This document shows positions 11,235 to 64,000 of a stretch of 64,000 nt of DNA, one piece after another. Made by a program: the position numbers and the translations under genes. Every line of letters begins with the position of its first letter. Positions within the stretch are counted from its first letter, which is position 1. A model generated the notes under the pieces. The model did no database searches. It saw only the letters and a list, made by a program, of their open reading frames with translations, and was not told where the DNA came from. The DNA comes from an uncultured bacterium (GTDB lineage: Bacteria; Armatimonadota; Hebobacteria; CAIYQO01), in assembly GCA_964472305.1 (NCBI GenBank), contig CAYYJR010000011.1:547-64546 (forward strand), read 5' to 3'.

Positions 11235-11328
11235 TGTAGTTATTCCTCCTGTTGTTCTGCGTTGCTGGCATGTCGGGGACGAAGTCGCCACGGGTCGTCC
11301 CACGGGCTGCCAGCATTTAGCTTACGGG

Positions 11329-15376: not shown

Positions 15377-15388
15377 AGGAGGATCATT

Positions 15389-15844: not shown

Positions 15845-15914
15845 TGTCCGCCGTTGGGGGGCGTGGAATCTCGATTGCCGCGCCCCTTCGGTTTTCTTAA
15901 AAGGAGTGATGTTG

Positions 15915-16364
15915 ATGCACACTTTATATCGCAGCCCTGGCATCTCCTTGACCGGCATGTTGCTCGGTATGACCCTATTCGTCTTTGCGCTCACTGCCTC
16001 ACCGACGCACGGGCAGTGCGCCCCTACGCCGCCGGCGGCGCCGCCGATGGCGGAGGTGACGATGACCGATGACCGGTATACGCCGGTGGAACTGGTGGTG
16101 CCTGCCGGCGCCACGGTGCGCTGGAGCAATTTCGGTCAACACCCGCATACCGTCACCACCGATACCGCAAACGCCGCCACGGGCGGTCCGGATTCCGGGC
16201 AGGTTTTTCCCAACGGCGTTCCCCCCAATGCCGCAGTCGTGTGGACGGTGCCGGTGAATGCCGCCTCCGGCACGCGCTGGTACTACCACTGTGTCTTTCA
16301 CGGCGGCGCCGGCGACGGCAAGAGCCTCGGTCCAGGCATGAGCGGAGTGATCGTGGTGCAATAG
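15915..16364 (+). CDS. Type-1 (blue) copper protein, plastocyanin/azurin-like cupredoxin
   Basis: Signal peptide (LLGMTLFVFALTASPTHG). Copper ligands are in canonical order: H (GQHPHTV), then C-x2-H (YYHCVFHGG), then M (GPGMSG). Start taken 8 nt after RBS AAGGAG; the GTG/ATG codons at 15906/15909 are alternatives. Confidence 0.65.
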   Translation: MHTLYRSPGISLTGMLLGMTLFVFALTASPTHGQCAPTPPAAPPMAEVTMTDDRYTPVELVVPAGATVRWSNFGQHPHTVTTDTANAATGGPDSGQVFPNGVPPNAAVVWTVPVNAASGTRWYYHCVFHGGAGDGKSLGPGMSGVIVVQ

Positions 16365-20205: not shown

Positions 20206-20402
20206 ACGCCGCCGTCGGCTCACTTGCCGCCGCGAGGTATTGACAGTATTGCCGACTTTTTGCTACCGTTACGCATTGTGTAAGGAAGACTGCGCGGAGC
20301 GTGCGTGCGCATGAGCCGCCGGTAAGCCGGCAGACGATCTTTGTGGGGTCGGGCTGCCGGTTTTTGGTTACAGTGGACCGCCAACGTGCGGGAGACGTGG
20401 AA

Positions 20403-23400
20403 ATGCAGGGGGGATTCGCCGTGAGCCAGCATCAACAGTTGATCGAGTGGGTTAATGAAATGGCACGCATGTGCCAGCCGGATCGCATCGTCTGGATCGA
20501 TGGATCTGAAGACGAAAAGGAACGCCTCACCCAGGAAGCATTAAGCATCGGCGAGTTGATTCCCCTTGACCAGGAAAAACTGCCCGGCTGCGTGTATCAT
20601 CGCACCGCGACAAACGACGTAGCCCGTACAGAAGACCTGACGTTCATTTGTACCAAGTTGCAGGATGATGCCGGACCGACCAATAACTGGATGTCGCCGG
20701 AAGAGGGGTATCGCCGTGCCGGTGAGCTCTTCCAGGGTGCAATGCAGGGGCGGACGATGTATGTCATCCCCTTCTCCATGGGTCCGGTCGGTTCACCGTT
20801 CAGCAAGATCGGCGTCGAACTCACCGACAGCATCTACGTGGTGCTGAACATGCGCATCATGACCCGCATTGGGGCCGCCGTGCTGAAACAACTCGGTACC
20901 GCCGGCGAATTCACCCGGTGCCTGCATAGCAAGGCTGACCTGAACATCACGCGACGGTTGATTTTGCACTTCCCCGAAGACAACACCATCTGGAGCGTGG
21001 GCTCCGGTTATGGCGGCAACGTCTTGCTGGGCAAGAAATGCCTGGCGCTGCGCATTGCCAGCTTCCTCGGCAAGAGCGAAGGCTGGCTGGCTGAGCACAT
21101 GCTGATCATGGGCATTGAAGATCCAGCCGGACGCATCGAATATATCGCTGCCGCTTTCCCCAGTGCGTGCGGGAAGACCAACCTCGCCATGCTGCTGCCT
21201 CCGGAAGGGCTGCAGATGAAGGGGTATCGCATCTGGACCGTGGGCGACGACATCGCGTGGATGCGCATCGATACCGACGGGCGGTTGTGGGCGATCAATC
21301 CGGAAACCGGCTTCTTCGGCGTGGCGCCGGGTACGAACGCGAAGACCAACCCCAACATGATGAAGACCATCAGCAGCAACACAATCTACACCAACGTCGT
21401 GCTGGGCAACGACGGCACCGTGTGGTGGGAAGGCGGGGAAGGCGATCCGCCGGCGGAAGGCTTGGATTGGCAGGGACGTCCGTGGACGCCGGACACCGTG
21501 GACGCGGCTGGCAAGAAAGTCGTCGGCGCGCACCCGAACAGCCGCTTTACCGCGCCGATCACGCAATGTCCGACACACTCGTTCCGCATCGAGCACCATC
21601 ATGGCGTGCCCATCTCCGCCATCATCTTCGGCGGTCGCCGCGCCCACCTGGCGCCGCTGGTCTACGAGTCGTTCGACTGGGAGCACGGCGTCTTCGTCGG
21701 CGCGACCATGGCCTCCGAGCGCACCGCGGCGCAGTTCGGCGCCCAGGGTGAGGTTCGCCGCGATCCGATGGCCATGCTGCCTTTCTGCGGCTACCACATG
21801 GGCGACTACTTCGAGCATTGGTTGAACATGGGCCAGCGCATGAGCCAGCCGCCGAAAATCTTCAACGTCAACTGGTTCCGCATGGATGAGAACGGCAAAT
21901 TCCTGTGGCCCGGCTTCGGCGAAAATCTGCGCGTCATCGAGTGGATTCTCGACCGCTGCCGCGGCGAAGCCGATGCGCGCGAGACGCCTATCGGCTATGT
22001 GCCGACGGCGGACAGCCTGGACTTGACCGGACTGGATGTTTCGCGCGACACGCTGGAAAAACTGTTCGCCTGCAACCAGGAAGACTGGCTGCGCGAGACG
22101 GAATCCGTGCGCGTGTTCTTTGAGACATTCGGCGCGCGTCTGCCCAAGGAGATGTGGCAGCAACACACCGCGCTGCGTCAGCGTTTGGAATCCCCGGTCT
22201 CGATGTTGAAGGCAGGGAATACGTTGCGGCCTTCGGCGGTGGAACTCAATGCGATTATCGAGCGTGAGAATCCGGAACTGTTCGCCATGCTGTCGCAACT
22301 CGGCAAGCGCCTGTATTTCCCCAAGGGCATCCTGGCGCAGAGTGCGGAAGCCACCGAAAAGGCTAAGCAGTTCAACGCCACCATCGGCATCGCCCGCGAG
22401 CAGCAGCAACCGATGTATCTCCCCTCGGTGATGCAGTACCTGGACAAGCTGACACCGGCGGAGGCGCTGACCTACGCTCCGGCTACCGGTAATCCGGCAT
22501 TGCGCAAGCTGTGGAAAGAACACTTGCTGGCGCAGAACCCGAGCCTGGCTGGCAAAGCGATCAGCACGCCCATCGTTACCGGTGGCGTGACCCACGCACT
22601 AAGTCTGGTGGGTGATCTGTTCGTGAACCAGGGTGATTTCATCCTGCTGCCGGACAAGTTTTGGGAGAATTATGAACTGCTGTTCGGCGTACGCATGGAA
22701 GCCCAACTCGGCGTCTATCCGTTTTATAACGCAGACGGCGGCTTCAATGTCGAGGGGTTGCGTCTGGCGCTGGCCGCGCGCCGTGACGCGGGAAAGACCA
22801 TCCTGGTACTGAACTTCCCGAACAATCCGACCGGCTACTCGATTCGCAAGAACGAGGCGGACGCTGTGGTGGCGGTGCTGAAAGAGGCCGCGGAGAATGG
22901 CTGCAACCTGGTGGTCATTTCCGACGATGCTTACTTCGGTTTGTATTACGGCGACGAGGTGCTGCCGGAATCGCTCTTCGCGAAGATCACCGGACTGCAC
23001 GAGCGCATCCTGGCGGTGAAAGTGGACGGGCCGACGAAGGAAGAATATGTGTGGGGTTTCCGCACCGGCATGATCACCTTCGGCGCGAATGCTGCCAGCA
23101 CGGACGCGCTTTACGGCGCGCTGGAAAAGAAGGTGGCGGGCGCCATCCGCAGCGCCATCTCCAACTGCTCGCAGCCGGCGCAGTCCATCCTGTTGAAAGC
23201 GATGAACGATGACGCGTTCTCAGCGGAGATTCAGCAGAAGTACGACATTATGGCCAGCCGCGCGGCGAAGACGCAGGAGATTCTGCGGAACCCGGCGTTC
23301 ACCGAGTTGTGGGAGCCGTATCCCTTTAACGCGGGCTACTTTATGTGCCTGAAGCTGAAGGGGATCGACGCGGAGAAATATCGCAAGCACCTGCTCGATA

Positions 23401-23552
23401 AGCACGGCGTGGGCGTCATTGCCGATGGGAAGCACGACATCCGCGTGGCTTTCTCCGCGGTCGAAGCGGAGGAGCTGTCCGCGCTCTACGATGTGCTCGC
23501 GACCGCCGCCCGTGAACTCATCGCGGACGGGGAAGCCGTTTCGGTGAAATAG
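20403..23552 (+). CDS. pckG: Fusion protein: GTP-dependent phosphoenolpyruvate carboxykinase (N-terminal, about 600 aa) plus class-I AspC-like PLP aminotransferase (C-terminal, about 450 aa)
   Basis: One uninterrupted reading frame. PEPCK-GTP motifs: LIEWVNEMARMCQPDRIVWIDGSEDE, the kinase-1a P-loop AAFPSACGKTNLAML, WMRIDTDGRLWAINPETGFFGVAPGT, NWFRMDENGKFLWPGFGENLRV. Beyond ~nt 22200 come aminotransferase motifs: NFPNNPTGY, VVISDDAYFGLYY, and the PLP-lysine block GPTKEEYVWGFRTG (compare AspC SYSKNFGLYNERVG). An intrinsic terminator follows. Confidence 0.8.
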   Translation: MQGGFAVSQHQQLIEWVNEMARMCQPDRIVWIDGSEDEKERLTQEALSIGELIPLDQEKLPGCVYHRTATNDVARTEDLTFICTKLQDDAGPTNNWMSPEEGYRRAGELFQGAMQGRTMYVIPFSMGPVGSPFSKIGVELTDSIYVVLNMRIMTRIGAAVLKQLGTAGEFTRCLHSKADLNITRRLILHFPEDNTIWSVGSGYGGNVLLGKKCLALRIASFLGKSEGWLAEHMLIMGIEDPAGRIEYIAAAFPSACGKTNLAMLLPPEGLQMKGYRIWTVGDDIAWMRIDTDGRLWAINPETGFFGVAPGTNAKTNPNMMKTISSNTIYTNVVLGNDGTVWWEGGEGDPPAEGLDWQGRPWTPDTVDAAGKKVVGAHPNSRFTAPITQCPTHSFRIEHHHGVPISAIIFGGRRAHLAPLVYESFDWEHGVFVGATMASERTAAQFGAQGEVRRDPMAMLPFCGYHMGDYFEHWLNMGQRMSQPPKIFNVNWFRMDENGKFLWPGFGENLRVIEWILDRCRGEADARETPIGYVPTADSLDLTGLDVSRDTLEKLFACNQEDWLRETESVRVFFETFGARLPKEMWQQHTALRQRLESPVSMLKAGNTLRPSAVELNAIIERENPELFAMLSQLGKRLYFPKGILAQSAEATEKAKQFNATIGIAREQQQPMYLPSVMQYLDKLTPAEALTYAPATGNPALRKLWKEHLLAQNPSLAGKAISTPIVTGGVTHALSLVGDLFVNQGDFILLPDKFWENYELLFGVRMEAQLGVYPFYNADGGFNVEGLRLALAARRDAGKTILVLNFPNNPTGYSIRKNEADAVVAVLKEAAENGCNLVVISDDAYFGLYYGDEVLPESLFAKITGLHERILAVKVDGPTKEEYVWGFRTGMITFGANAASTDALYGALEKKVAGAIRSAISNCSQPAQSILLKAMNDDAFSAEIQQKYDIMASRAAKTQEILRNPAFTELWEPYPFNAGYFMCLKLKGIDAEKYRKHLLDKHGVGVIADGKHDIRVAFSAVEAEELSALYDVLATAARELIADGEAVSVK

Positions 23553-24860: not shown

Positions 24861-25023
24861 CGTGCATATCCTTTCCGCCGTCCCGGTTGCGTTCGTTATC
24901 CAGTGTAAGTAAATGACCGTATTCTGACAAGTACTGTCGCCTTGCACCTACCTGTTCGGCCTGTTATACTCTGCTCACCGGCTTGATACAGGCCGTGCCT
25001 CATCTGCGAACGGAGACGTGATT

Positions 25024-26100
25024 ATGTTGATGCCCATCGAGCATATCCCGGATTGGGAACAGCGTTTGGCACGCCAGGATGCCTTCTGGAATTGCGATAT
25101 CATCGACCGCCCCGTGGTGAATATGCACCTCTCTCGACCGAACCCGGCGTATCCGTGGCCGGCGGGTAAGGAATATGCCATTGCGCGCGATGCTTGGATG
25201 GATTGCGAGGCGATCGCCCAGCGCATGGTGGCCGGTACGATGAATACCGAATACCTGGGCGACGCGCTGCCGGCGGCCAATCCCAACCTCGGGCCTGAAG
25301 TGTTCAGTGCCTTCTGCGGTTGCGAGATGGATTACACGCAGGACACCTCATGGACCATTCCCAACGTACATGACTGGTCGGAAGTGTCGAAGGTGAAGTT
25401 CACCACCGAGAACTACTACTGGAAGAAGATGAACGAGCTTACCGACGCGCTGTTAACGATCGGCAAGGGTGTCTATTACGTCGGCATCACCGACCTGCAT
25501 CCCGGCGCTGATGCCATCGCTGCCTTCCGCGACCCGTTGCAGATGAATATTGACATGATCGAGTCGCCGGAGGAGATCAAGTCGCTGCTCGACTATGTCA
25601 CCCAGGCGTATTTCGCGGTATACGATCACTTCTTCAACAAACTGCGCGCGGCGGGGCAGGCGTGCACCGCGTGGCCCGGCATCGTGTCCAGCAAGAAGTG
25701 GTACGTGCCGTCGAACGACTTCTCCTGCATGATCTCGAAGGCGATGTTCGACGAATTCTTCCTGCCCGGCATCGCTGCCGAGTGCCGCCACATGGAGGCC
25801 AATATCTATCACCTCGATGGCCCCGGCGCTTTGCAGCACCTGGACAGCCTGCTCGGTATTCCCGAACTGAACGCCATCCAGTGGGTGTATGGCGCCGGCA
25901 ATGGCCGCCCCTCCGACTGGCTGCCTGTCTACCGGAAGTGCCAGGCCGCCGGCAAGGGCTTGCAGATCGGGTTGGAACTCGACGAACTTGACCTGTTTAT
26001 GGACACGCTGAAACCCAATGGCCTGTGGCTGACCATTTCGGGTGTGCCGAACCGCGAGGTTGCCGACGCGATTCTGAAGAAGATGCTGACGTGGAAGTAG
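25024..26100 (+). CDS. URO-D/MtaA-like family protein, paralog 2
   Basis: About 358 aa. Architecture and length resemble the paralogs at 1587-2861 and 27214-28329 (CGCEMDY..., HLDGPGALQHLDSLLGIPELNAIQW). RBS GGAGACG. Confidence 0.4.
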   Translation: MLMPIEHIPDWEQRLARQDAFWNCDIIDRPVVNMHLSRPNPAYPWPAGKEYAIARDAWMDCEAIAQRMVAGTMNTEYLGDALPAANPNLGPEVFSAFCGCEMDYTQDTSWTIPNVHDWSEVSKVKFTTENYYWKKMNELTDALLTIGKGVYYVGITDLHPGADAIAAFRDPLQMNIDMIESPEEIKSLLDYVTQAYFAVYDHFFNKLRAAGQACTAWPGIVSSKKWYVPSNDFSCMISKAMFDEFFLPGIAAECRHMEANIYHLDGPGALQHLDSLLGIPELNAIQWVYGAGNGRPSDWLPVYRKCQAAGKGLQIGLELDELDLFMDTLKPNGLWLTISGVPNREVADAILKKMLTWK

Positions 26101-44940: not shown

Positions 44941-46071
44941 GTGCGTCTCGCCATTACCTGTTTTGCCGGCATCGGCGGCAGCGGCATTGTCGCTACCGAA
45001 TTGGGCAAAGGCCTGGCCGCCCGTGGCCACGAGGTGCATTTTGTCTGCGCCGACATGCCGTTCCGCCTGGAGGATCTGTCCGCGCGCCTGTATTTTCATC
45101 CCGTGCGCCCATTCCCCTATCCGGTGCTGCAAAGCCCGCTTTACGATCTGGCGTTGGCATCGCGGTTAGCCGAGGTGATGGCTGAGCAGCAGCTTGAGTT
45201 GCTGCACGTGCACTATGCCATCCCGCATGCCATCTCCGCGTACCTGGCACGGCAAATCTGCACGCATTCCTTCCCGGTGATTACCACGCTGCACGGCACC
45301 GATACGCGGCTGGTAGGGCTCGATCCCTCATATCGACCGATCACCCGCTTCAGTCTGGAACAATCCGACGGCGTGACGGCGGTGTCGCGCCACTTGGCCG
45401 ATGCCACCCAGGAGGATTTCGCGCTCACTCATCCCATCACGGTGTTGCACAACTTCGTCGATACCGTGCGCTTCCGCCGGCGCGAACTGCCCCACTGCTA
45501 TCGCGCGCAGTTCGCCGAGGAGAACGAGCGCCTGCTGGTGCATATTTCCAATATGCGCCCGGTGAAGCGTCTTCTCGATATCGTGCGCGCTTTCGCCCTG
45601 GTGCAGCATGCGCTGCCTGCCCGGCTGGTGCTGGTGGGTGACGGGCCGGATCGGTTCGCGGCGGAACGGCTGGCCTGCGAATTGGAAGTGGCTGACCGCG
45701 TCACCTTCGCGGGCAATATCGCGCACGTGGAGAATGTGCTGGCGGTGGCCGATCTGTTCCTGCTCGCATCCGAAGTGGAATCGTTCGGATTAGCCGCGCT
45801 GGAGGCAATGGCTTGCGGCGTGCCGGTAGTCGGCACCGCCATCGGTGGCGTGCCGGAGGTTGTGACCGACGGCGTGGATGGCCTGCTGGTGGGGGTGGAT
45901 GACCCGGAAGCGCTGGCGGAGGCCGCATTGTCGCTGTTGCGGGTGCCCGAGCGACTGGCCGCCTTCGCCCGTGCCGCATACACACGGGTGGAAACCGACT
46001 TCAGTCTCGAGGCCGGCATCAGCGCCTATGAACGCTATTACGCGCAATTCCTCGCTCGCGCCGTCGTCTAA
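44941..46071 (+). CDS. bshA: GT4 glycosyltransferase, BshA-like (N-acetyl-alpha-D-glucosaminyl L-malate synthase-like)
   Basis: The N-terminus MRLAITCFAGIGGSGIVATELGKGLAARGHEVHFVCADMPFRLED is near-identical in pattern to BshA ([33 protein letters not shown]). The C-terminal GT4 E-x7-E region is present (FGLAALEAMACGVPVVGTAIGGVPEVV). GTG start behind AAGGGAG. Confidence 0.6.
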   Translation: MRLAITCFAGIGGSGIVATELGKGLAARGHEVHFVCADMPFRLEDLSARLYFHPVRPFPYPVLQSPLYDLALASRLAEVMAEQQLELLHVHYAIPHAISAYLARQICTHSFPVITTLHGTDTRLVGLDPSYRPITRFSLEQSDGVTAVSRHLADATQEDFALTHPITVLHNFVDTVRFRRRELPHCYRAQFAEENERLLVHISNMRPVKRLLDIVRAFALVQHALPARLVLVGDGPDRFAAERLACELEVADRVTFAGNIAHVENVLAVADLFLLASEVESFGLAALEAMACGVPVVGTAIGGVPEVVTDGVDGLLVGVDDPEALAEAALSLLRVPERLAAFARAAYTRVETDFSLEAGISAYERYYAQFLARAVV

Positions 46072-46394
46072 AGCGGTATTTCCATCGGTTTTCACCGAAG
46101 CGCAGCGCGTATTTTTCGATATCTTCGCCCTGCCGTGCTGGCGTTTCTTTACCGGGAGATCGCATGGTTGGTGCCCGGTTACACCCGTGTTCCCAGAGGG
46201 AATACAGCGCTGCTGCCCGGCATAAAATCATTCGCCCACTAGGAAATCGCTGTAAAATATGGTACAATCCTATCATCCTCGTCGGAGAGCGCCTGTGAAG
46301 CCGGCCAGGAAGCGAGATGCATGCCGGTCATCCCTGAGTAATTCGGGGGCCAGATGTTCTTTAGCTTACATGTCAATCCGCTGGAGGAGCTTGC

Positions 46395-47609
46395 ATGCCA
46401 TCATTTCGGTATAATGCCATTGACCAGACGGGGCGCCCGTATTCCGGTACGCTGGACGCTGAAAATCTGGAAGCGGTGCGCGCAAAATTAGCCGAGTTAC
46501 GCTACTACGTCGTTGGGATTGCAGAGATCGGCACCACCACCAGCCTCAACGATTACCTCAAAGCCTTCTCGCGGGTCAAGCAGAAAGAACTCGTCGTTTT
46601 CAGCCGGCAGTTTGCCACGATGATCGACGCCGGTTTGAGCGTATTGAAGTGCCTGGACATTCTCAATCGCCAGACGAAAGACCCGGTGTTGCGCGACACG
46701 CTGGCGACCGTACGCCATGATGTCAACGGCGGTGCCAGCCTTACCGAGGCCATGAGCAAGCACCCGCGCGTGTTCAGTAAGTTATACGTCAATATGGTGC
46801 GCTCCGCGGAGGCCGGCGGTATTCTCGACCAGGTACTCGATCGCCTGGCGACTTTCCTGGAAAAAGACCTTGACCTGCGGCATAAAGTCAGCTCGGCGAT
46901 GATGTATCCGACGGTGGTTTTCGTGTTCTCCGCCGTCGTGATGTGCGTCATGATGTGGTGGGTGCTGCCCCGTTTCGCCACGATTTTCGAAGAGATGGGA
47001 TTGAAAGAGCTGCCGTTTACCACCAAGGTCATGCTGGGATTTGCCACCAGTACGAAGAAATACTGGTACCTGGTCATCATGTCCATCGTCGCCGCCATCG
47101 TCGGCATCAAACTCTACGGACGCACACCGACCGGCGCATTGCACCTAGATAAACTCAAGCTGCGCATGCCGATTTTTGGCGATATCATGATGAAAGTTGC
47201 TATTTCGCGCTTCGCTCGCACCTTCGGCACGCTGATCTCCAGCGGTGTCCCGGTGTTGCGCGCCATGGAAATCACCTCCGATACCTCCGGCAACCTCGCC
47301 ATTGCCCAGGTTATTGAAAAAGCACGCACCAGTGTGAAAGAAGGCGAAAAAATCAGCGATCCCATGCAGAACAGCGAGTATTTCCCGGTCATGGTCACTC
47401 AGATGATTTCCGTGGGGGAAGAGACCGGGCGCCTCGATCAAATGCTCGTCAAAGTCTCTGATTTCTATGAAGCCGAAGTGGATGCCTTGCTCAAAGGCCT
47501 GGCCTCACTCATCGAACCATTTATGATTGTCGGTCTGGGGATCATGGTCGGTTTCATCGCCGTGAGCGTCATTTCCCCAATTTATACGCTGGTGGGCAGT
47601 GTGCATTAA
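46395..47609 (+). CDS. Type II secretion / type IV pilus platform protein (GspF/PilC family)
   Basis: 404 aa. Two GspF repeats are present (FSRQFATMIDAGLSVLKCL...; FARTFGTLISSGVPVLRAM...) with three TM helices. RBS GGAGGAG. Its stop TAA is immediately followed by the ATG of the next gene. Confidence 0.8.
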   Translation: MPSFRYNAIDQTGRPYSGTLDAENLEAVRAKLAELRYYVVGIAEIGTTTSLNDYLKAFSRVKQKELVVFSRQFATMIDAGLSVLKCLDILNRQTKDPVLRDTLATVRHDVNGGASLTEAMSKHPRVFSKLYVNMVRSAEAGGILDQVLDRLATFLEKDLDLRHKVSSAMMYPTVVFVFSAVVMCVMMWWVLPRFATIFEEMGLKELPFTTKVMLGFATSTKKYWYLVIMSIVAAIVGIKLYGRTPTGALHLDKLKLRMPIFGDIMMKVAISRFARTFGTLISSGVPVLRAMEITSDTSGNLAIAQVIEKARTSVKEGEKISDPMQNSEYFPVMVTQMISVGEETGRLDQMLVKVSDFYEAEVDALLKGLASLIEPFMIVGLGIMVGFIAVSVISPIYTLVGSVH

Positions 47610-48977
47610 ATGACTCCTCAGAATCCAGACACCGTTGACAACGCCTCCACCCGTGCCGCGGGAGAGCTGGACACGCTGGCGCAGTTTCGCGCCTTTCGTG
47701 CAACGCACGACATCGCCCTGCGGGATCAACTCGTCTGTCGCTATCTGCACCTGGTGCACAGCGTCGCCCGCCGCTTCAGCGGCATGGGCGAATCGGTGGA
47801 GGATCTGGTGCAGGAAGGCACTATCGGCTTGCTGAACGCCGTCGACCTGTACGATCCCGAACGGGGAGTTAAATTCAGCACGTATGCCTGCCACCTCATC
47901 ACCAGCCAGATGCAGCACTACCTGCGCGACCGCGGCCGGCTGATCCGTCAACCGGCGTGGGTGCAGGAACTGAACACCAAAATTACCCGCTCCACCGAAC
48001 AGCTCGCGCAGGAACTGGGACGCGATCCCTCGTCGGCAGAGGTGGCGGAACGGTTGAACATCTCTGAGGATTCGGTGCAGAACGTGCTGGCCGCCCGCGA
48101 GTTGAACCGTGTGATGTCGCTTAACGCCCCCGCCGACGGCAGCAGCGACTCCGAGTTGTCGCTGGTGGAAAAGGAGAAGGGATCCGTCTCCAAGCTGACT
48201 GCAATGCAGTTGCCGGTGGAAGATCGCATCGTGCTCGACGACGCAATTAACGGTCTGAAAGAGCTGGAACAAAAAGTGGTGCGCCTCTTCTTTTTCGGCG
48301 ATTTCAACCAGACGGAGATCGCGCGCAAACTCGGCATTTCGGTCAACTACTCGTCCTATTTGCTCCGCCGCTCAGTCACGAAGATCAAAGCGGTACTGGA
48401 TGAACAGCGCATCCAGGAAACGGCGGCATTACTGGAGAGTGAAACCGAGCGTATACAGTTATCGGCCGATCTACCAACCCACGATGCCGTCGCCGGCGTT
48501 TATTCCGGTGCCTATCTGCGCGCACGGGTTGCCGAAGAGATTGCCCGCGGTCGCCGTTATCCGACCAATTTCGCGCTGATGCTGGCTGGCGTGCAAGGCT
48601 TCGATCCCGCTGATGCCGAGCAGGCGCGGCTGGTGCTGCCGCCTATCGGACAGTTGCTGCGCAGTTGTACCCGCATTGTGGACCTGACCGCCCATATCGG
48701 CAACGGTCAGTTCGGATTGCTGCTCCCCCACACGGGCCGCGAGGCGAAGGTGCTTGGTGAGCGCCTGTGCGTTCAGGTGGCCACGCGCGAATTGCTACCT
48801 CCCGGCTGCATGCTGTCGCTGGTGTTGAATGTCGGATTCGCGGTCTTCCCGATGGAGGGCGCCAGTGTGGAGATGCTGTTTGATCGCGCGGAACACGCGC
48901 TGGCGCAGGCTGTCAAGGCCGGGCACAATACCGTCATGGGAGTGCCGGTTGCCCGTATCCCGCTGAAAGTGGTGTAA
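47610..48977 (+). CDS. Group-3 (SigB/SigF-like) sigma-70 factor fused to a degenerate GGDEF domain with an intact I-site
   Basis: Sigma region 2 (DLVQEGTIGLLNAVDLYDPERGVKFSTYACHLI) and region 4 HTH (QTEIARKLGISVNYSSYLLRRSV). Residues ~285-455 align to GGDEF, but the active site is GNGQF, the DxD metal site is lost (LAGVQG) and RIVD sits exactly 5 residues before it (RxxD I-site retained). The C-terminal DRAEHALAQAVKAGHNTV matches the GGDEF tail. Confidence 0.7.
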   Translation: MTPQNPDTVDNASTRAAGELDTLAQFRAFRATHDIALRDQLVCRYLHLVHSVARRFSGMGESVEDLVQEGTIGLLNAVDLYDPERGVKFSTYACHLITSQMQHYLRDRGRLIRQPAWVQELNTKITRSTEQLAQELGRDPSSAEVAERLNISEDSVQNVLAARELNRVMSLNAPADGSSDSELSLVEKEKGSVSKLTAMQLPVEDRIVLDDAINGLKELEQKVVRLFFFGDFNQTEIARKLGISVNYSSYLLRRSVTKIKAVLDEQRIQETAALLESETERIQLSADLPTHDAVAGVYSGAYLRARVAEEIARGRRYPTNFALMLAGVQGFDPADAEQARLVLPPIGQLLRSCTRIVDLTAHIGNGQFGLLLPHTGREAKVLGERLCVQVATRELLPPGCMLSLVLNVGFAVFPMEGASVEMLFDRAEHALAQAVKAGHNTVMGVPVARIPLKVV

Positions 48978-49206
48978 CCTGTCCGGCATGGCTTCAACGT
49001 CGTGTGGCATGATCGGTGACACATGGCGTGGGAATGGTGTGTTTCTGCTCTTGATGAAGAAGGAATCGTGCAAATACCGGCGAATAGCTAAAGATACGAT
49101 GAAAAACGATAACCCTCCCACAGCGCACCCCCGGTCGCGGGGCAGGCGTAATGGTCGGATAAGACGACGCACTTCGTGGATGACAGGCAATGGCAGGGGT
49201 GCGAGC

Positions 49207-52200
49207 ATGGGGAAGGAGGCTTCGGTGAAACGAATGGGATGGCTCAGTGTGCTGATGATCGTGCTGGCGGGCATGTGCTGGAGCGTCGCGACGGCGCAGT
49301 TCGCCTGGGATCCCCAGGAATTTATGGGGATCGATGAGATCAGACCAGGCATGACCGGATACGGCAAAACGGTTTTCGAAGGCACCAAGGTCGACAAATT
49401 CGACATCGAAGTGATCGGTGTACTGAAGAAGATCGATTTCGGCTTCGACATGATCCTGATTAAAGTGACCAGCGGGCCCGTTATCGATCGGAAGCTGCAA
49501 ACCGTCTCCGGGATGAGCGGCAGTCCCATCTATATCGAAGATCGGCTGATCGGCGCGTATGCGTATGGTTGGGAGTTCCAGCAGGAAGCGATCGCCGGTG
49601 TCACCCCCATCGCGGCGATGATGGAATGTAGCCAGCCCGGTTCGACAGCGCCGCAGCTCATCGGCAGCCTGGTACCGCGCAACCGCGTGCTGCATATCGG
49701 CAAGCACATGATTACCCGCGTCGAGGTGGTGTCCAACCCCTCGGAAGCGCGGCAGTTGCAGGCGAAAGCTGATCCGACTACCATGGTGCTGGCGCCGGTC
49801 GCCACCCCGGTGTTTGTGAGCGGCATGTCCGAAAAGGCGCTGCCGTCGCTGCAGAAAATCTTCGATCGATATAATCTGCGCGCGTTGCCGGGCGCGGGTC
49901 CGATGGACGGTCCCGCTCCGCCACTGGAAGCGGGTTCCGCTGCCGCCGTGTCGCTGATGGAAGGCGACGCTAACATGAGCGCGGTCGGCACTGTCACCTA
50001 CGTGAAGGGTGACACCGTGCTCGTATTCGGGCATCCGTTCCTCGGGGTTGGGAAGATCGACCTGCCGCTTTCCGCGGCGTACGTGCATGGGATTATCAGC
50101 AGCAGTGCCTCATCATTTAAACTCGCCTCGCCACTTGGCGAGGTGGGCGCCGTCACCTCGGACCGCGCCTTTGCCGTCGCCGGCATTCTCGGGCGCAAGG
50201 CGGAGGTGCTGCCGGCTACGCTGTATCTGAACGATCCCACGCGCAAGTTCACCCGGCGCTATCAGGCCAATCTGATGAGTGACCCCAACTTCACCCCCGC
50301 GCTGCTCTATATGTGGATCATCTATAACGGCGCGCAGCAGATGGGCGATCTCATGGGTGACGAGGGAACCTTTGTCGGGCGCATGCTGCTCAATACGGAT
50401 ACACTGGGCAGCATCGATCAAACCATCGCCGTCTGCCCGCAAATGAGCAGCACCTTCTTTCCGTTCAGTGAGTATTATGAGCTAGCCGACCTGTTAATGA
50501 AGAATCCGTATGAACCGGTGAAACTGAAGGAGATCTTCATCGACCTGAAATATACTCCCGAGCGCAATGTCGCGGTCATCGAAAAGGTTACACCGGACCG
50601 TCCGATCGCCCGTCCGGGCGATATTGTCAACCTGTCGGTGAACATTCGACCGTATGGCAAACCACTGGAAACGCGCACCGTGTCGGTGAAGGTGCCCGAG
50701 CGGGCGACTGAACCGGTGATGCTGGTGGTGGTAGCCGGCGGCACGATGGCCCCGTTTGTCAAACCATTGCTCAGTCCGGAGCCAACGTCGGAAGAAGGAT
50801 TGAAAGGAGTGGTGCGCTGGCTCACTAATAATCCGTCCAACCAGAGCCTGCTGACCGTGAAAATATTACCGTCACCCAGTTATGGGTATCGCGCGCACCT
50901 CTTGCGTGATGTGCCGTTGCCCGTGCTGGATCTGCTGCGGTTTGCCGAGACGGGCATCACGCCCCAAACCCGCAGCACAGGCGATTCCGGCGAGAATGCG
51001 CGAGAGGGGCAGAGCGGCGGCTTTGGCGGTAATGTTCAGCCCACCGCGTATATGACAATTGAAGATGTGCCATATTCGCTGGGCGGCGGTCAGATTATCT
51101 CCATCGCCATCGATACCGAGGAACGGGCGCTGCAGTCGCGACGCGGCCCCTTCGACTTCGGCATGCAGTTGCCGGTCCTGAGCTCGTCGCTCAACCCGGG
51201 GCGTGAAGCTCCTGAAGAAGGCAACGGTCCACCGTCGGGCAAAGATGAGATCGCCATGTATTCATCGTTGTTAACCCCACAGCAGAGGGCACGATTCGCG
51301 ATGATGCAGGAAATGTTCAAAGTGCCGACGGCACCGGTGACGCGAATGACGTTGCCCACCCTGACGGGACGCACGCTGGGTCGCGCCGAGTTGCTCTCAC
51401 GCGCCCTGTTGGCCAATCCACGTGCCGGCGAGGATGCAGAAATTGACGCCCAACCACCGGGCGATGGCGAAAAAAGTGAAGCCGGTCTGAAAGACGCGGA
51501 AACCGATGAGAATGGGCAGGCGCAGGAAGAGGATAATCCCGACGCTGACAATGCCAAGGAGCCTGGTTATGGCGAGTTGAAGTCGCTGCTCACCCGCAAG
51601 CAGATGAGTTGGGGCTTGACAGGACGGCGCGATTTCTTGCGCGGCAAGCATCTCGGCACCGGCGTTACCTCGCGCGGCAACCTGGTGCTGGTGCCCGCCG
51701 TGCGCTCGATCTACCAGACAAACAAGCTCATTCCCTGGAAGATCATCACCACAGCCAACGGCACCTACCTGTCCGGTTGGGGCAGCAGCAACATCGTGAA
51801 ATTCACCGCCGAGGGGAAGAGCGAAACCTTCTTCCCGAAGGTCGCATTGACCACGCCCGTGGAAGCGGTGACCGCCCTGGCCAGCGATGCCGACGGCAAC
51901 CTGCTCATCGGCACCTGGCCTGATCAGCGCGTCCGCCTGGTGGATACGACGGGTACGGTGAAACGTGAATGGGTACTGCCCGGCGGATCCATCTGGGATC
52001 TGGCTGTCACAAAGAACGGCAATCGGTATGCCGCTTGCGATGAAGGAATGGTCTATCTCCTGCGCGACCAGGCAGATGTGCCGCTGCAGGTGGCCTGCAC
52101 GGTGCCCGATAAACAGGTCTTTGTGTTGTCCGCCGCCGCTAACGGCGACCTGCTGATGGCTACCTCGCCGCGTGGCAAGGTGTATCGCCTGAAGGCTGTA

Positions 52201-53943
52201 GACGGGCAACTGAATTCGGTGTATGAGGCGCAAGGTGCGGTGACCAGCCTGACCACTGATGCGCAGGGGAACGTTTACGTGGGCACCTCGCCGCTGTGCC
52301 AGGTGTTCCGCATCAGCCCGGACGGCACCCAGCAGGAGATTATGCGCGGCATGGGCCGCGGCAATCGCCATGTGCTGTCGTTGCAAATGGTCGGCGATGA
52401 CCTGTACGCCGCCACCGGACCGGCCGGCGGCATCTACCGCATCAGCCAACCGACCAGCATGGAAGCAGAAGTCACCGCCGTCTTCGCTCGTGAAGACGCG
52501 CGGACCGGCGGTGAAGTTGATTCGGCCGGCTCTCCCGATGGCGTCGGCCCCGAATCGGTCATGGTGAATGCGCTGACGGTGAATGCCCGTGGCGAACTGC
52601 TGGCAGCGGCTTCCACGCCCGGTCAGGTGCTGAAGCTGGAAAACCGTACACAGGGCGCCTTCCTTTCCACCGTACTGCAGACCCCGGTGGTCGCACGTTG
52701 GGGACATTTCGACCTTCATGGCAATTTCGGTGAGGGCCAGACACTGGTGGTCGACAGCCGCAGTGGCAGCACCGCGGTGCCAGATAATACCTGGAGCCAG
52801 TGGACGGAAATCAGCAGTGACTGGTCGGAACTCACCAGTCCGCCGGCGCCGTTTGTGCAGTTCCGCGTGCGCATGTCCGGCGCGACGTCCCCATCGCTCG
52901 CCTATGCCCGCTTGTTCTACCAACCATCCAACCAGGCGCCGAAAATTCGCCTGCTGCAACCGCGCCCCGGCCAGTATTGGAGTGGAATGAAATCAATCCG
53001 CTGGGAAGCAATGGACCCAGATGGCGACACCCTGGTCTTCAACGTCTCAACCTCGCGCAATAACGGGAAGACGTGGTCGCTGATGGTGCGGACGCCCGAC
53101 GCGCCCCAACCGGAAGCCGCGCCGAAAGAGAACACAGCTGAACCGGCGGATAAAAAAGCCGATGAATCACAGACGCCGAAAGCCGATGCCGTTGCAAAAC
53201 CGGCGAAGTCCGGCAAGGAGAAGGTAAAAGGCGAGAAACCCGGGAAACCTGCGAAGGATCAGGTAGAAGTGTCGAAAGTGGTGGATCCGGTCAAAGGCAC
53301 ATCGACCGATACCAAACCCACGGCGGAAACGCCCAAACCGGAGGAGAAACCTGCGGTGAAATCGAGAAGATCCGATTCTGAACTGGCTGAATCCACTATG
53401 CCGTGGGATACCAAATCCACGCCGGATGGTCTTTACCTGCTGAAGATCGAAGCGTCGGATAAATACGCGAAACCCACCGATCCGAAGAGTGCGGTAGTCA
53501 TCTCCGGCGCCGTGATGATCGACAACACGCCGCCGTCCATCGCGCTGGACGATAAAGTCTATGGATGGGACGGTCTGAAGCGCATTGTCCTCACGGATAA
53601 CCTGACGGCACTGATGGGTGGCAAATACCGCATCGAGGATGGTCCGTGGACCGCGCTGGTCGCGGAAGACGGCATGTTCAATGCTCGTCAGGAAGCTGCG
53701 TTGCTGGTAACCCCCACCGGTGATGTCGCACTCACCAAGGGTGAATATAAAGTCGAACTCCAGGCGTTCGATTCCGCCGGCAATATGCTTGATCGCACGA
53801 TCACCGTACTGGTCGGCATTCAACCCCCACGTCCCCCGGCTAGTTTGGACGTACCGCCGGTGGGGGAGGCCAAAATCGGCGATATCAACCTCACCGAGCA
53901 TGAACGCCGGCTGGCTGAGATCCTGTTGCGCGGCCTGGAATAA
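49207..53943 (+). CDS. Giant secreted multidomain protein: SpoIVB-like (S55) serine-peptidase motifs, low-complexity linkers, Reg_prop-type beta-propeller, Ig/FN3-like domains
   Basis: Signal peptide KRMGWLSVLMIVLAGMCWSVATAQFA. Residues ~50-170 match the Ser half of SpoIVB (DKFDIEVIGV...MILIKVTSGPVIDRKLQTVSGMSGSPIYIEDRLIGAYAYGW). The His-half-like segment (AVGTVTYVKGDTVLVFGHPF...VHGIISSSASSFKLASP) comes later. Acidic/Pro-rich and Lys/Pro-rich linkers separate repeats DADGNLLIGT, AANGDLLMAT, DAQGNVYVGT. Start ATG 49207 or GTG 49225. Terminator follows at 53969. Confidence 0.6.
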   Translation: MGKEASVKRMGWLSVLMIVLAGMCWSVATAQFAWDPQEFMGIDEIRPGMTGYGKTVFEGTKVDKFDIEVIGVLKKIDFGFDMILIKVTSGPVIDRKLQTVSGMSGSPIYIEDRLIGAYAYGWEFQQEAIAGVTPIAAMMECSQPGSTAPQLIGSLVPRNRVLHIGKHMITRVEVVSNPSEARQLQAKADPTTMVLAPVATPVFVSGMSEKALPSLQKIFDRYNLRALPGAGPMDGPAPPLEAGSAAAVSLMEGDANMSAVGTVTYVKGDTVLVFGHPFLGVGKIDLPLSAAYVHGIISSSASSFKLASPLGEVGAVTSDRAFAVAGILGRKAEVLPATLYLNDPTRKFTRRYQANLMSDPNFTPALLYMWIIYNGAQQMGDLMGDEGTFVGRMLLNTDTLGSIDQTIAVCPQMSSTFFPFSEYYELADLLMKNPYEPVKLKEIFIDLKYTPERNVAVIEKVTPDRPIARPGDIVNLSVNIRPYGKPLETRTVSVKVPERATEPVMLVVVAGGTMAPFVKPLLSPEPTSEEGLKGVVRWLTNNPSNQSLLTVKILPSPSYGYRAHLLRDVPLPVLDLLRFAETGITPQTRSTGDSGENAREGQSGGFGGNVQPTAYMTIEDVPYSLGGGQIISIAIDTEERALQSRRGPFDFGMQLPVLSSSLNPGREAPEEGNGPPSGKDEIAMYSSLLTPQQRARFAMMQEMFKVPTAPVTRMTLPTLTGRTLGRAELLSRALLANPRAGEDAEIDAQPPGDGEKSEAGLKDAETDENGQAQEEDNPDADNAKEPGYGELKSLLTRKQMSWGLTGRRDFLRGKHLGTGVTSRGNLVLVPAVRSIYQTNKLIPWKIITTANGTYLSGWGSSNIVKFTAEGKSETFFPKVALTTPVEAVTALASDADGNLLIGTWPDQRVRLVDTTGTVKREWVLPGGSIWDLAVTKNGNRYAACDEGMVYLLRDQADVPLQVACTVPDKQVFVLSAAANGDLLMATSPRGKVYRLKAVDGQLNSVYEAQGAVTSLTTDAQGNVYVGTSPLCQVFRISPDGTQQEIMRGMGRGNRHVLSLQMVGDDLYAATGPAGGIYRISQPTSMEAEVTAVFAREDARTGGEVDSAGSPDGVGPESVMVNALTVNARGELLAAASTPGQVLKLENRTQGAFLSTVLQTPVVARWGHFDLHGNFGEGQTLVVDSRSGSTAVPDNTWSQWTEISSDWSELTSPPAPFVQFRVRMSGATSPSLAYARLFYQPSNQAPKIRLLQPRPGQYWSGMKSIRWEAMDPDGDTLVFNVSTSRNNGKTWSLMVRTPDAPQPEAAPKENTAEPADKKADESQTPKADAVAKPAKSGKEKVKGEKPGKPAKDQVEVSKVVDPVKGTSTDTKPTAETPKPEEKPAVKSRRSDSELAESTMPWDTKSTPDGLYLLKIEASDKYAKPTDPKSAVVISGAVMIDNTPPSIALDDKVYGWDGLKRIVLTDNLTALMGGKYRIEDGPWTALVAEDGMFNARQEAALLVTPTGDVALTKGEYKVELQAFDSAGNMLDRTITVLVGIQPPRPPASLDVPPVGEAKIGDINLTEHERRLAEILLRGLE

Positions 53944-54057: not shown

Positions 54058-55353
54058 TTATTCTTCTTCCTCCATCGTCTCCAGTGCTTCATCCCAGTCG
54101 AAAATGATCTGGTTGCCGCCGATGTGCTGTGCTTGCGACACACACTGGCTGGCCTTGAGCGTCAACTGCTCGACGGTGGTCACGCGTACGGACAGGCAGG
54201 CAACGCCAATGCTGACGGAGAAATGTCCCAGGCCTTGTGCATTCTGGATGGTCAATGCCGAGATGCGCTCGCGCAGGCGCTCCGCTACCACCACCGCGCC
54301 GATGCCCGGCGTCGACGGCAGCAGCACCCAGAACTCCTCATCGGTATATCGCGCAGCCATATCGCGCGCGCGCACGCAGCCTTGAATCTCCTGGGCGATG
54401 CGCGCCAATACCTCGTCGCCAAAGTTGACGCCGAAGTTCTGGTTCATGGATTGCAGATGGTCAGCGGTGACAATCAGCAGCGACAGGTGACCACCGGTCT
54501 GAATGGCTTCAGTCACGTACCGCTGGATTTCGTCGAGAAAGTGCTGCTTGTTCGATAGTCCGAGTTCGGGATCAGTCGTGCTATTGGGATCAAATCGCCC
54601 CTTCAATGACGCGAGCTGGCGCGCGGTAGTGTCCAGTGTGGTCTGCAGCCGCATCTCGCGCAGACGCGCGGCTAGCAGTTGCCCGACCAGGCGCAAAGTT
54701 TCCAACTCCACCGATTGGAGTGATCGACCTTCGATGTCAGCGAGTACGATGGCGCCCATTGGCGTGGCGTGGGCCGCCAGCGGCGCCAGGATCAACGTGC
54801 GCGCCGTGTGACTCTGTTCGGCGCTGCCGTCTTCCGCGGGCGGCAACTGCCGATCGAAATCGGTAATCACCCGCACGTCGCTGGCGCCTTTGCGCATTAA
54901 GTGGGTTACCAGCGCAATCACCCGTTGCAGCGGAAAAACCTCTTCCTCATCCGACATGATGAGCGCCATGGAGGAGAGCACTTTGCCGTCGTGCAGCAGA
55001 ATAGTGCCGTATTCCATACCGTAGGTTTCGGCCAGACGTCCGATGGCATATTCCAGCAATTCGCTCTCCTGGCGCAGGCGCAGCATGGTGGAACCGACTT
55101 CACGGGTGAAATGCAGCAGTTTACTCGCCAGGATCTGCGTATCGTCATGTTGTTGCTCGGTAGTTGAATTAGCCATAAAAGAATACCATTCACGGAATAA
55201 TTGTCGCGCCATCGAGGCATGCGCGGTTGCATCGACATCCGAGCGGCGAGCGCATTTGACACCCGCCGAAGAGACCGGCAAAATATAGTCTTCAAGGAGA
55301 TCATCGGATTGCCGGCGAAAAGACTTAACCAACTTATTCCAGCGCGCGAGCAA
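54058..55353 (-). CDS. GAF-domain protein with degenerate GGDEF domain (RYTDEEF), likely non-catalytic
   Basis: N-terminal GAF-like regions. The C-terminal GGDEF fold (LIVTADHLQSMNQNFG, GDEVLARIAQ) has TDEEF in place of GG(D/E)EF and an RARD I-site 5 residues upstream. Confidence 0.6.
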   Translation of the reverse strand: MLARWNKLVKSFRRQSDDLLEDYILPVSSAGVKCARRSDVDATAHASMARQLFREWYSFMANSTTEQQHDDTQILASKLLHFTREVGSTMLRLRQESELLEYAIGRLAETYGMEYGTILLHDGKVLSSMALIMSDEEEVFPLQRVIALVTHLMRKGASDVRVITDFDRQLPPAEDGSAEQSHTARTLILAPLAAHATPMGAIVLADIEGRSLQSVELETLRLVGQLLAARLREMRLQTTLDTTARQLASLKGRFDPNSTTDPELGLSNKQHFLDEIQRYVTEAIQTGGHLSLLIVTADHLQSMNQNFGVNFGDEVLARIAQEIQGCVRARDMAARYTDEEFWVLLPSTPGIGAVVVAERLRERISALTIQNAQGLGHFSVSIGVACLSVRVTTVEQLTLKASQCVSQAQHIGGNQIIFDWDEALETMEEEE

Positions 55354-63230: not shown

Positions 63231-63514
63231 GGCTGAAGGCAGCATGACCGGCATAAGACTGCCCGGTGGTCTGCTGCGTATCGACCAGTAGGAGTCGTAT
63301 AACTATGTTGGCGGGCGTAACCGATCAAAATTCGTGTATGGCGAAGGCAATTATTGCTAACGGCAACGGCCATCGTTTCTACGCGCCACGGCACGATGCC
63401 GGTTCACATCCCGCCATGTCCGCTGTTCCGGGCACGCTATGCCGGCGGACGACGACAGCTTCATGCTCAAATGGGACAATCAGGTGATCAATTACGTAAA
63501 AGGAGGTTCCCGAA

Positions 63515-64000
63515 TGGTTAGGCAAAAGGTATCACTCCGAGGCTTTACCCTCATCGAACTGCTTGTAGTGATAGCCATCATCGCTATCCTGGCAGCAATT
63601 CTCTTTCCGGTATTTTCCAAGGCTCGCGCCAAGGCTTACCAGAATGTGTGTCTGAACAATCAGCGCCAGTTGGCGCTGGGTATCCTGACTTACAGCCAGG
63701 ATAACGAAGAGACGCTTCCGTATCCCCCGAAATGGGTGGCGGCCACCGGACTCAGCAGTGATTCGAAGGTGTTCAACTGTCCGGTCAGTTCCGAAGACGG
63801 CATGCCGTCCGCGCCGGATTACGGGTACAACTCATGGCTGTTTGATGAAGTCGACGGCGTAAAAGTCGGCGCGGCGTACGGCAACATTCAGCGTCCGGAA
63901 GCCACGGTAATACTCGTGGATGCGTATGGGACGACCGCTCCGACCGCGGACAGCGCCAACCCGTTTGGGTCGAGTCCCACCGTCAATTCATTGACCGGCA
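63515..64000 (+). CDS. Prepilin-type N-terminal cleavage/methylation-domain protein, DUF1559 (H-X9-DG)-like, 3'-partial
   Basis: [41 protein letters not shown] is the class-III signal/pseudopilin N-terminus typical of the abundant DUF1559 proteins of Planctomycetota/Armatimonadota. The ORF runs off the window end. Confidence 0.75.

Follow-up and report, generated by a model that had tools for sequence, protein, structure and literature searches.

Gene organization at the locus

The DNA examined here is a stretch of 64,000 nucleotides (nt) from an uncultured bacterium (Armatimonadota; Hebobacteria; CAIYQO01), corresponding to positions 547–64,546 of the forward strand of contig CAYYJR010000011.1 in assembly GCA_964472305.1. 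We refer to this whole stretch as the window. At 47610–48977 (+) it contains a gene for a protein of 455 amino acids (aa), the N-terminal part of which is a sigma factor and the C-terminal part a degenerate GGDEF domain. An earlier note, written from the letters of the sequence, had singled out this sigma–GGDEF fusion as a candidate for a sigma factor that senses cyclic di-GMP (c-di-GMP) directly. The computationally testable interpretation in that note is supported by the analysis presented here; the embedding of the gene in a type IV pilus cluster, described below, was not part of it.

The order of the genes around the fusion is AddB-like, tetratricopeptide repeat (TPR) protein, family 4 glycosyltransferase (GT4), pilC, sigma–GGDEF, a giant S55-like protein, GAF–GGDEF and amidohydrolase. 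The immediately upstream gene, at 46395–47609 (+), encodes the type IV pilus platform protein PilC/GspF (two T2SSF domains in Pfam, 1.2e-65; NCBIfam PilC 400 bits, GspF 380 bits). Its TAA stop abuts the ATG of the sigma gene in the sequence taaatg at 47607–47612. The TAAATG junction reported earlier is thus present, but it is particular to the window lineage: among relatives the gap between pilC and the sigma gene runs from about −12 to +260 nt.

The sigma factor

Is the N-terminal part a complete sigma factor, and to which group does it belong? Pfam places Sigma70_r2 at aa 42–110 (1.8e-20, 72.9 bits against a cut-off of 24), Sigma70_r3 at aa 120–188 (1e-14, 54.8 bits; cut-off 25.3) and Sigma70_r4/r4_2 at aa 209–260 (r4_2 42.9 bits, cut-off 25.7; r4 35.2 bits, cut-off 24.1). 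Together, regions 2–4 occupy 47733–48389 (+), as seen with Pfam, AlphaFold2 (AF2), Foldseek and phmmer. At 101.1 bits the protein is well above the TIGR02937 cut-off of 42.9 and so belongs to the sigma-70 family. Just ~35 aa precede region 2, region 3 is present, and there is neither a region 1.1 nor a non-conserved region. This is the layout of group 3, with regions 2, 3 and 4 and no region 1.1; the presence of region 3 sets the protein apart from the extracytoplasmic function (ECF) sigma factors of group 4, which have regions 2 and 4 only.

The two best NCBIfam models are that of the SigB/SigF/SigG subfamily (TIGR02980, 177.1 bits) and that of the cyanobacterial-type SigF (PRK07408, 170 bits), in agreement with the assignment in the earlier note of a complete group-3 sigma-70 nearest to SigB and SigF. 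Since these scores lie below the respective cut-offs of 234.35 and 261 bits, the protein is, on its profile scores, a SigB/F-like group-3 sigma factor outside the named subfamilies, in a family of its own. In sequence searches full-length alignments of the sigma part are obtained with SigF (1l0o_C, the complex with SpoIIAB), Staphylococcus aureus SigB (8x6g_H), WhiG (6pfv) and housekeeping sigma factors; SigA is among the matches. The AF2 model of the full-length protein has a mean pLDDT of 84, all three sigma regions and the GGDEF part exceeding 90, and Foldseek matches it in the PDB to S. aureus SigB, sigma-S and the RsiG–WhiG–c-di-GMP complex (6pfv, 6pfj). The linker between regions 3 and 4 (aa 168–199) is disordered in this model, and a helix at aa 245–278 continues from region 4.2. 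A variable linker of ~31 aa (aa 261–291; 48390–48482 (+)) connects region 4 to the GGDEF domain.

The GGDEF domain

The C-terminal domain (aa 290–440; 48477–48929 (+)) matches Pfam PF00990 at 9.5e-12 (45.4 bits, cut-off 23.8) over profile positions 2–160 of 161. Modelled alone (aa 283–455, alignment A2), it gives an AF2 structure with a pLDDT of 93.2, a predicted TM score (pTM) of 0.88 and the secondary-structure order of a GGDEF domain. The best 50 Foldseek matches of this model are all solved GGDEF domains (YfiN, MorA, PleD, WspR, DgcB, DosC and others), with TM scores of 0.74–0.83 (about 0.8 to PleD, WspR and YfiN) and a root-mean-square deviation of 2.3–3.1 Å in most. The profile of the family, searched against the PDB, spans the whole domain in its matches to 6d9m, a Geobacter hybrid-type GGDEF protein and the best sequence match (5.7e-24), to WspR (3.5e-17) and to PleD (1e-13). 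The GGDEF fold proposed for this region in the earlier note is therefore upheld by sequence and by model alike.

To place individual residues we relied on PleD, the numbering of which was checked by matching PleD residues 310–395 to PDB chains before the family profile was aligned to that fragment with hhalign. What remains of the catalytic machinery? G327 and Q329 stand at the positions of the metal-binding aspartates D327 and D329 of PleD, and GNGQF (aa 364–368; 48699–48713 (+)) takes the place of PleD GGEEF. The segment with the guanine-binding Asn and Asp (FKxxNDxxGHxxGD) is shortened and replaced. Three features of an active diguanylate cyclase are thus missing, namely GG(D/E)EF, the equivalent of PleD D327 and the guanine-binding segment, and the loss of GG(D/E)EF and DxD noticed earlier is confirmed. 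Because the active site is destroyed, the domain is, as judged from its sequence, unable to make c-di-GMP or to bind GTP.

The inhibitory site has fared differently. The I-site of PleD consists of R359, D362 and R390 together with R313 contributed by a neighbouring GGDEF domain (PMC7288161). In the fusion protein R355-I-V-D358 (48672–48683 (+)) aligns with PleD R359/D362, and with RssD of WspR, exactly 5 residues ahead of the degenerate signature (RIVD-LTAHI-GNGQF), the canonical position at which the RIVD motif had been recognized. R385 (48762–48764 (+)) aligns with PleD R390, the third primary I-site residue. At the end of helix alpha-1 the interval from R313 to R316 (48546–48557 (+)) supplies a candidate for the secondary I-site arginine (PleD R313/WspR R198): R316 faces WspR R198 in a profile alignment to a WspR-like chain, WspR being numbered by our own count, and R313 falls on PleD R313 by ungapped extension of the PleD alignment, so that either of the two may be the exact equivalent. 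With RxxD at −5 and equivalents of R390 and R313, the domain has the sequence features of an I-site receptor of the PopA/PelD type.

Might such an arginine-rich pocket hold another ligand, such as 3'3'-cGAMP, c-di-AMP, (p)ppGpp or GTP, and the sigma factor sense that instead? The structural matches include PleD with c-di-GMP and ppGpp or pppGpp (9g85, 9g86) as well as 6d9m, and a degenerate GGDEF A-site that senses GTP is established in the literature for Caulobacter PdeA. The A-site for GTP is however destroyed in the present case, with DxD lost, the guanine-binding segment deleted and GG(D/E)EF gone. The conserved residues correspond one-to-one with those of the c-di-GMP I-site, and related clusters link the fusion to an enzyme of the HD-GYP type, a phosphodiesterase for c-di-GMP (see below). 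We consider a different ligand to be quite improbable.

Distribution and selective conservation

How widespread is the fusion? A 125-kb NCBI contig and a Logan assembly made independently of it encode the identical 455-aa protein. A word-indexed search returned 498 relatives; among the 120 matches listed nearly all, more than 100 homologues, have the same sigma and GGDEF Pfam set, at 44–75% identity. The database labels of these relatives, which come from Armatimonadota, say no more than 'sigma-70 family' or 'sigma-B factor'. When one genome per species was scanned, 43 loci emerged. Those with a phylum label are Armatimonadota metagenome-assembled genomes (MAGs) with one exception, labelled Actinomycetota; several are described just as 'uncultured bacterium'. 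Fimbriimonadia, Abditibacteriaceae and 'Hebobacteria' are the Armatimonadota groups represented. The exception (locus L036 in our numbering, SYMT01000040.1) also has pilC next to the sigma–GGDEF gene, and mis-binning or horizontal transfer is possible. Finally, an exhaustive hidden Markov model search, which covered 1.84 billion representatives, gave ~69 clusters (50% identity) that match both halves, and those with a name are all from Armatimonadota; stand-alone sigma factors of ~250 aa follow. When the profile of the C-domain was used to look for other architectures, we found only truncated fragments of the same family and then generic REC–GGDEF proteins at ~27% identity, with no informative sister architecture. 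The fusion is one conserved gene across the phylum Armatimonadota.

These data bear directly on the suspicion that the fusion is a product of frameshift or mis-assembly, or that its GGDEF domain is an active diguanylate cyclase after all. A split version of the gene does exist: in L048 it is broken into open reading frames (ORFs) of 271 and 152 aa. In this locus (L048 3452–7300; 528-kb contig_15966), which we considered as a natural split-gene form and rejected, GT4 and pilC are likewise each divided into two ORFs; because the neighbouring genes are broken too, we attribute the splitting to indels in the assembly. Two independent assemblies contain the same 455-aa protein, at least 69 clusters (50% identity) have the fusion as a single matched stretch, and both GG[DE]EF and the metal-binding pair of aspartates are missing from every member. 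The view taken in the earlier note, of a single gene with no frameshift, therefore holds. To an artefact or an active cyclase we give next to no credence, since the comparative data already refute both.

If catalysis has been abandoned throughout, has the I-site been abandoned with it? The counts that follow refer to 69 representatives of the family, clustered at 50% identity. An intact GG[DE]EF occurs in 0/69, and the Asp positions of DxD are not conserved. By comparison R355 is conserved in 62/69, D358 in 65/69 and R385 in 63/69, which puts the conservation of the I-site at ~90%; R313 is conserved in 61/69 and R316 in 48/69. The difference is sharper still in the orthologues linked to pilC, where RxxD and R385 are intact in 31/31 and the former GGDEF motif drifts freely (GNGQF, ENEQF, GEGTF, QHGRF, RGTRF, TAARF, ATATF and others). 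Alignment A2 of the C-domain has 10 invariant columns, of which five are arginines (R306, R313, R316, R355 and R385). As far as alignment can tell, the invariant arginines map onto the four-residue I-site as defined for PleD (PMC7288161); R306, E310 and PHTGRE (373–378) are invariant residues outside it.

Two paralogues that do not adjoin pilC have lost the I-site arginine and read HASD and HIED. The arginine is therefore not structurally obligatory and is not needed for folding. These genes (L047 9001–10392 and L024 2546–3763) still adjoin pilin-like genes, that of L047 being next to three pilin-like ORFs, two with N_methyl domains; they may encode c-di-GMP-blind sigma factors.

The column conservation of the whole protein is highest in the sigma regions (0.67–0.78; region 2, 0.78; region 4, 0.75), lower in the GGDEF domain (0.51) and lowest in the linker (0.31). 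The interval from K258 to D292, which holds the linker, measures 27–40 aa across the family.

The type IV pilus locus

In 31/47 tabulated loci pilC lies immediately upstream of the sigma–GGDEF gene on the same strand, down to a sigma identity of 34%. Some MAGs have a second sigma–GGDEF gene that is not accompanied by pilC and, being second copies, these are taken to be paralogues. The setting is clearest in L045 (47% identity), where the fusion sits mid-way in a complete type IV pilus cluster with the order pilM, pilN, pilO, pilQ, pilB (MshEN+T2SSE), pilT, pilC, sigma–GGDEF, major pilin, minor pilins, PilX-like, GAF–HD-GYP and a second ATPase; next comes the gene of the S55-like giant protein, in the opposite orientation. 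The core order pilQ–pilB–pilT–pilC–sigma–pilA...HD-GYP recurs in 11 loci, L045 and 10 others. Taken over the window and the related clusters, the neighbours are TPR, GT4, pilC, the S55-like giant protein, pilins and HD-GYP. We conclude that the sigma–GGDEF gene belongs to a type IV pilus locus.

The GAF–HD-GYP gene of L045 (13556–14980) has homologues in L012, L015, L016, L017, L018, L020, L022, L023, L040 and L041, and a homologue also lies 1–2.5 kb downstream of three paralogues that have no pilC beside them (L029, L037, L039). Since the HD and HHExxDGxGYP motifs are intact in the L045 protein (HHEvwDGsGYP), it is probably an active c-di-GMP phosphodiesterase. The position of the fusion within a pilus cluster, next to the major pilin and to HD-GYP, suggests a likely regulon for the protein and makes the link to c-di-GMP firmer. 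When the PilB ATPases of L045 were scanned for the c-di-GMP-binding motif of MshEN, a strict regular expression had 0 matches; by eye there is a partial resemblance.

Directly 3' of the sigma–GGDEF gene, the giant protein of the window (48988 or 49207 to 53943 (+), 1578–1651 aa) weakly matches SpoIVB/Peptidase_S55 and contains beta-propeller repeats as well as an immunoglobulin-like domain. It recurs at the edge of the pilus cluster, ~7 kb downstream and on the opposite strand, in L012, L016, L017, L020, L022, L041 and L045. At 63439–64000 (+) there is a pilin-like ORF that has an N_methyl motif (class III signal) and runs off the end of the window; its true start is likely M26 at 63514, behind the ribosome-binding site AAAGGAGG.

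What else might control the sigma factor? No anti-sigma, STAS or HATPase gene is present within ~15 kb upstream and ~13 kb downstream of it in the window. There is also no separate RsiG-type anti-sigma gene in this range or in the related clusters, RsiG motifs not having been searched genome-wide.

The same neighbourhood would be expected if the degenerate GGDEF domain bound no nucleotide at all and served as a module for interaction or dimerization, for example docking the sigma factor to an active diguanylate cyclase, to HD-GYP or to PilB/PilC. Availability of the sigma factor would then report the state of pilus assembly, a checkpoint like that of FlgM and sigma-28, and not c-di-GMP. GGDEF domains dimerize, and interaction modules are known among the degenerate ones (PMC5635695); adjacency to pilC and HD-GYP is expected of co-evolving protein partners too, and the invariant R306, E310 and PHTGRE 373–378 suggest an additional conserved surface. 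Such a module leaves unexplained, however, why exactly the residues that contact c-di-GMP (RxxD and the equivalents of R390 and R313) stay invariant when everything else in the nucleotide machinery is decaying. Degenerate GGDEF domains that are not under selection for a ligand typically lose the I-site as well (PMC9239204). We regard an interaction module that ignores c-di-GMP as unlikely, though the two functions are mutually compatible.

Promoter-like elements

If the sigma factor serves the pilus genes, is there a recognition sequence in front of them? In loci where the fusion is linked to pilA, a terminator-like hairpin lies 3' of the sigma gene, followed by ATCTCA-N18-GGAATA(AC), the spacer sequence of which is not conserved. 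The exact element ATCTCA-N18-GGAATA occurs once per locus in 11 loci, always in the interval that separates the sigma gene from that of the major pilin and always on the same strand (9367–9396 in L012, 10404–10433 in L045, and nine more loci). It occurs nowhere else in the 47 loci, which total 658 kb. Upstream of pilC, at equivalent positions in 22 loci, the same −10-like box (in the form GGWAYA) follows an A-rich stretch, and in the 'Hebobacteria'-type loci 20/22 occurrences of YRYGGAATAR lie upstream of pilC or pilA.

The candidate promoter of the pilC–sigma operon in the window is at 46240–46268 (+), ~130 nt before the ATG of pilC. It consists of TAGGAA (46240–46245), a 15-nt spacer and GGTACAAT (46261–46268). 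In Synechocystis the promoters from which the group-3 factor SigF transcribes pilA1 and itself combine TAGGC at −32 with GGTAA at −12 (GGTAC in pixJ1) (PMC2532724), and the resemblance of the window box to these is suggestive. It is possible that the two-block element and the pilC box are the sequences recognized by the fused sigma factor. The pilin-like gene at 63439 has no convincing upstream copy of the two-block element.

We also considered, and rejected, control by a riboswitch or another known RNA, whether in the leader of pilC or elsewhere in the window. No Rfam family, c-di-GMP riboswitches included, reaches its gathering threshold anywhere in the window, and in 45900–49400 there is no match even at E≤1.

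A model for regulation

We favour, with moderate confidence, the reading that the gene encodes a type-IV-pilus-associated group-3 (SigB/SigF-like) sigma factor of Armatimonadota that carries its own sensor of c-di-GMP. The combination of a dead A-site with a selectively kept I-site suggests that the protein is probably an initiation factor that reads c-di-GMP directly.

How might such a protein work? The N-terminal 260 aa, a complete sigma factor, would bind core RNA polymerase and direct it to the promoters of pilus genes, that is, to the promoter of the major pilin (ATCTCA-N18-GGAATA in the relatives) and to that of the pilC–sigma operon. As its own operon promoter would be among its targets, the sigma factor would be autoregulated in the manner of cyanobacterial SigF. 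An intercalated dimer of c-di-GMP would bind to the I-site of the GGDEF domain through R355, D358 and R385, with R313 or R316 furnishing the cross-linking arginine of the second half-site. The ligand could thereby join the GGDEF domain to that of a second molecule, giving a dimer of the sigma factor, or back onto the sigma domains of its own chain. Either form of cross-linking would alter the pool of sigma factor that is free for the core polymerase, and since it would do so, the GGDEF domain could be seen as a built-in, ligand-dependent anti-sigma factor. Transcription of the pilins would then follow the level of c-di-GMP set by neighbouring enzymes, for example the HD-GYP phosphodiesterase of the cluster.

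In which direction would the switch operate? The direction cannot be read from the sequence. By analogy, inhibition at high c-di-GMP seems somewhat likelier than activation: sequestration is favoured by the immobilization of domains in PleD and WspR and by the example of RsiG–WhiG. In other bacteria c-di-GMP stimulates pilus assembly by way of MshEN-type ATPases, and for this reason activation is a serious alternative.

Several observations weigh against this reading of the protein as a c-di-GMP-responsive sigma factor for pilus genes. An RxxD motif alone does not guarantee binding of c-di-GMP. GG[DE]EF is absent from all six frames of the 64-kb window, which accordingly encodes no active diguanylate cyclase. 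At 0.45, the pTM of the full-length AF2 model means that the domains are not confidently packed against each other and, there being no confident inter-domain arrangement, the geometry of any inhibition in cis is speculative. A few related lineages account for many of the supporting loci, and the counts given above are therefore not counts of independent events. In the window lineage itself the pilus cluster is dispersed; pilC alone is adjacent, as in L046, and the pilin-like gene is 14.5 kb off. The promoter boxes, for their part, could belong to a different regulator. That of pilC in the window fits an extended −10 housekeeping promoter (TGgTACAAT) equally well, which makes the assignment of the box ambiguous. 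The pattern AWAYGGWAYA is weakly enriched in the window, with 3 matches against 0.69 expected, and two of the three are intragenic; a prediction of the regulon of the window from this pattern was uninformative and was dropped.

Other genes of the window

A GAF–GGDEF protein of 431 aa (54058–55353 (−); Pfam GGDEF 103.9 bits) is encoded 5 kb downstream of the sigma–GGDEF gene. Its signature, RARDMAARYTDEEF, keeps RxxD, has TDEEF in place of GG(D/E)EF and reads VTAD at the position of DxD. Judged by these motifs, it too is probably a GGDEF protein of the receptor type that lacks catalytic activity, the second in this neighbourhood.

Two further observations concern other parts of the window. The ORF at 20301–23552 (+), of 1083 aa, joins a GTP-dependent phosphoenolpyruvate carboxykinase (aa 49–628, 545 bits) to a class I/II aminotransferase (aa 704–1064), and is either an unusual fusion or a read-through. 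Several well-formed ORFs of 150–480 aa, at 1587–3038 (−), 10068–11303 (−), 14591–16364 (+) and 25018–26100 (+), have a GC content at third codon positions of the coding type and no Pfam match at E≤1e-5.

Comparison with known systems

How does the fusion compare with the receptors and sigma factors already described? A dead A-site with a kept I-site is the recognition mark of the c-di-GMP receptors PopA of Caulobacter and PelD of Pseudomonas aeruginosa (PMC12564702, PMC10333796). Both resemble the present protein in having a degenerate A-site, RxxD 5 residues upstream of the former GG(D/E)EF and a sensor that is fused to its output. The outputs differ. That of PopA is a REC–REC proteolysis adaptor and that of PelD a membrane/GAF module of a polysaccharide synthase, whereas here it is a complete sigma factor; the putative receptor, moreover, is attached at the C-terminal side of its output through a variable linker of ~31 aa. 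In comparison with the product inhibition of PleD and WspR, the alignments indicate that the four-residue geometry of the I-site is kept (RxxD, the R390 equivalent and the arginine of helix alpha-1). Unlike PleD and WspR, the fusion protein has no catalysis to inhibit, and any cross-linking would affect the availability of the sigma factor.

A functional likeness to our proposal is seen in the RsiG–(c-di-GMP)–WhiG system of Streptomyces, where a group-3 sigma factor is sequestered, and so controlled after translation, by means of c-di-GMP. This sigma factor, WhiG, is itself among the matches, structural and sequence, of the sigma part. RsiG, however, is a separate coiled-coil anti-sigma factor that does not have the GGDEF fold; the putative receptor of the present protein is a GGDEF I-site domain, covalently fused. 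Regulation in cis by a fused C-terminal extension is known for ECF41, ECF42 and similar ECF groups, where, as proposed here, a C-terminal domain takes the place of a separate anti-sigma factor. Those sigma factors belong to group 4, without region 3, and carry extensions of the SnoaL-like, TPR or Cys-rich kinds, none of them being a receptor for a nucleotide second messenger.

In its presumptive target the protein can be likened to cyanobacterial SigF (Synechocystis Slr1564), a group-3 sigma factor dedicated to pilA1 and autoregulated (PMC2532724). SigF has no C-terminal domain, and the pilA promoter of the relatives, ATCTCA-N18-GGAATA, differs from its promoters in the −35 block. The likeness suggests an evolutionary link to the SigF–pilA circuit of cyanobacteria.

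Full-text literature searches and recent reviews of c-di-GMP yielded no description of a sigma–GGDEF fusion, nor of c-di-GMP being bound by a sigma factor itself, and the claim of the earlier note that the architecture is new stands on that footing. Is the mechanism new as well? That this is the first sigma factor to sense a nucleotide second messenger directly, with c-di-GMP switching it between a free and a self-sequestered or dimerized form and so controlling pilin transcription across a phylum with no need of an anti-sigma factor, a transcription factor or a riboswitch, is a proposition on which we find the evidence evenly poised.

The routes known to lead from c-di-GMP to transcription are repressors, activators, riboswitches and one anti-sigma factor, RsiG. 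If the proposal is true, no path known so far from c-di-GMP to the selection of promoters would be as direct as a sigma factor that carries the receptor itself, and the concept of a sigma factor with a built-in regulator would extend from the ECF to the group-3 sigma factors. A compact, ligand-controlled sigma factor in a single polypeptide would be tractable in vitro and could be of use as a switch in synthetic biology. It would also furnish a first concrete regulatory hypothesis, comprising sigma factor, promoter, regulon and signal, for the type IV pili of the Armatimonadota, a widespread but barely studied phylum. Each of the parts is known, whether as I-site receptor, as sigma factor with a fused extension, as control of the RsiG type or as group-3 sigma factor for pilin genes; it is their combination for which no description was found.

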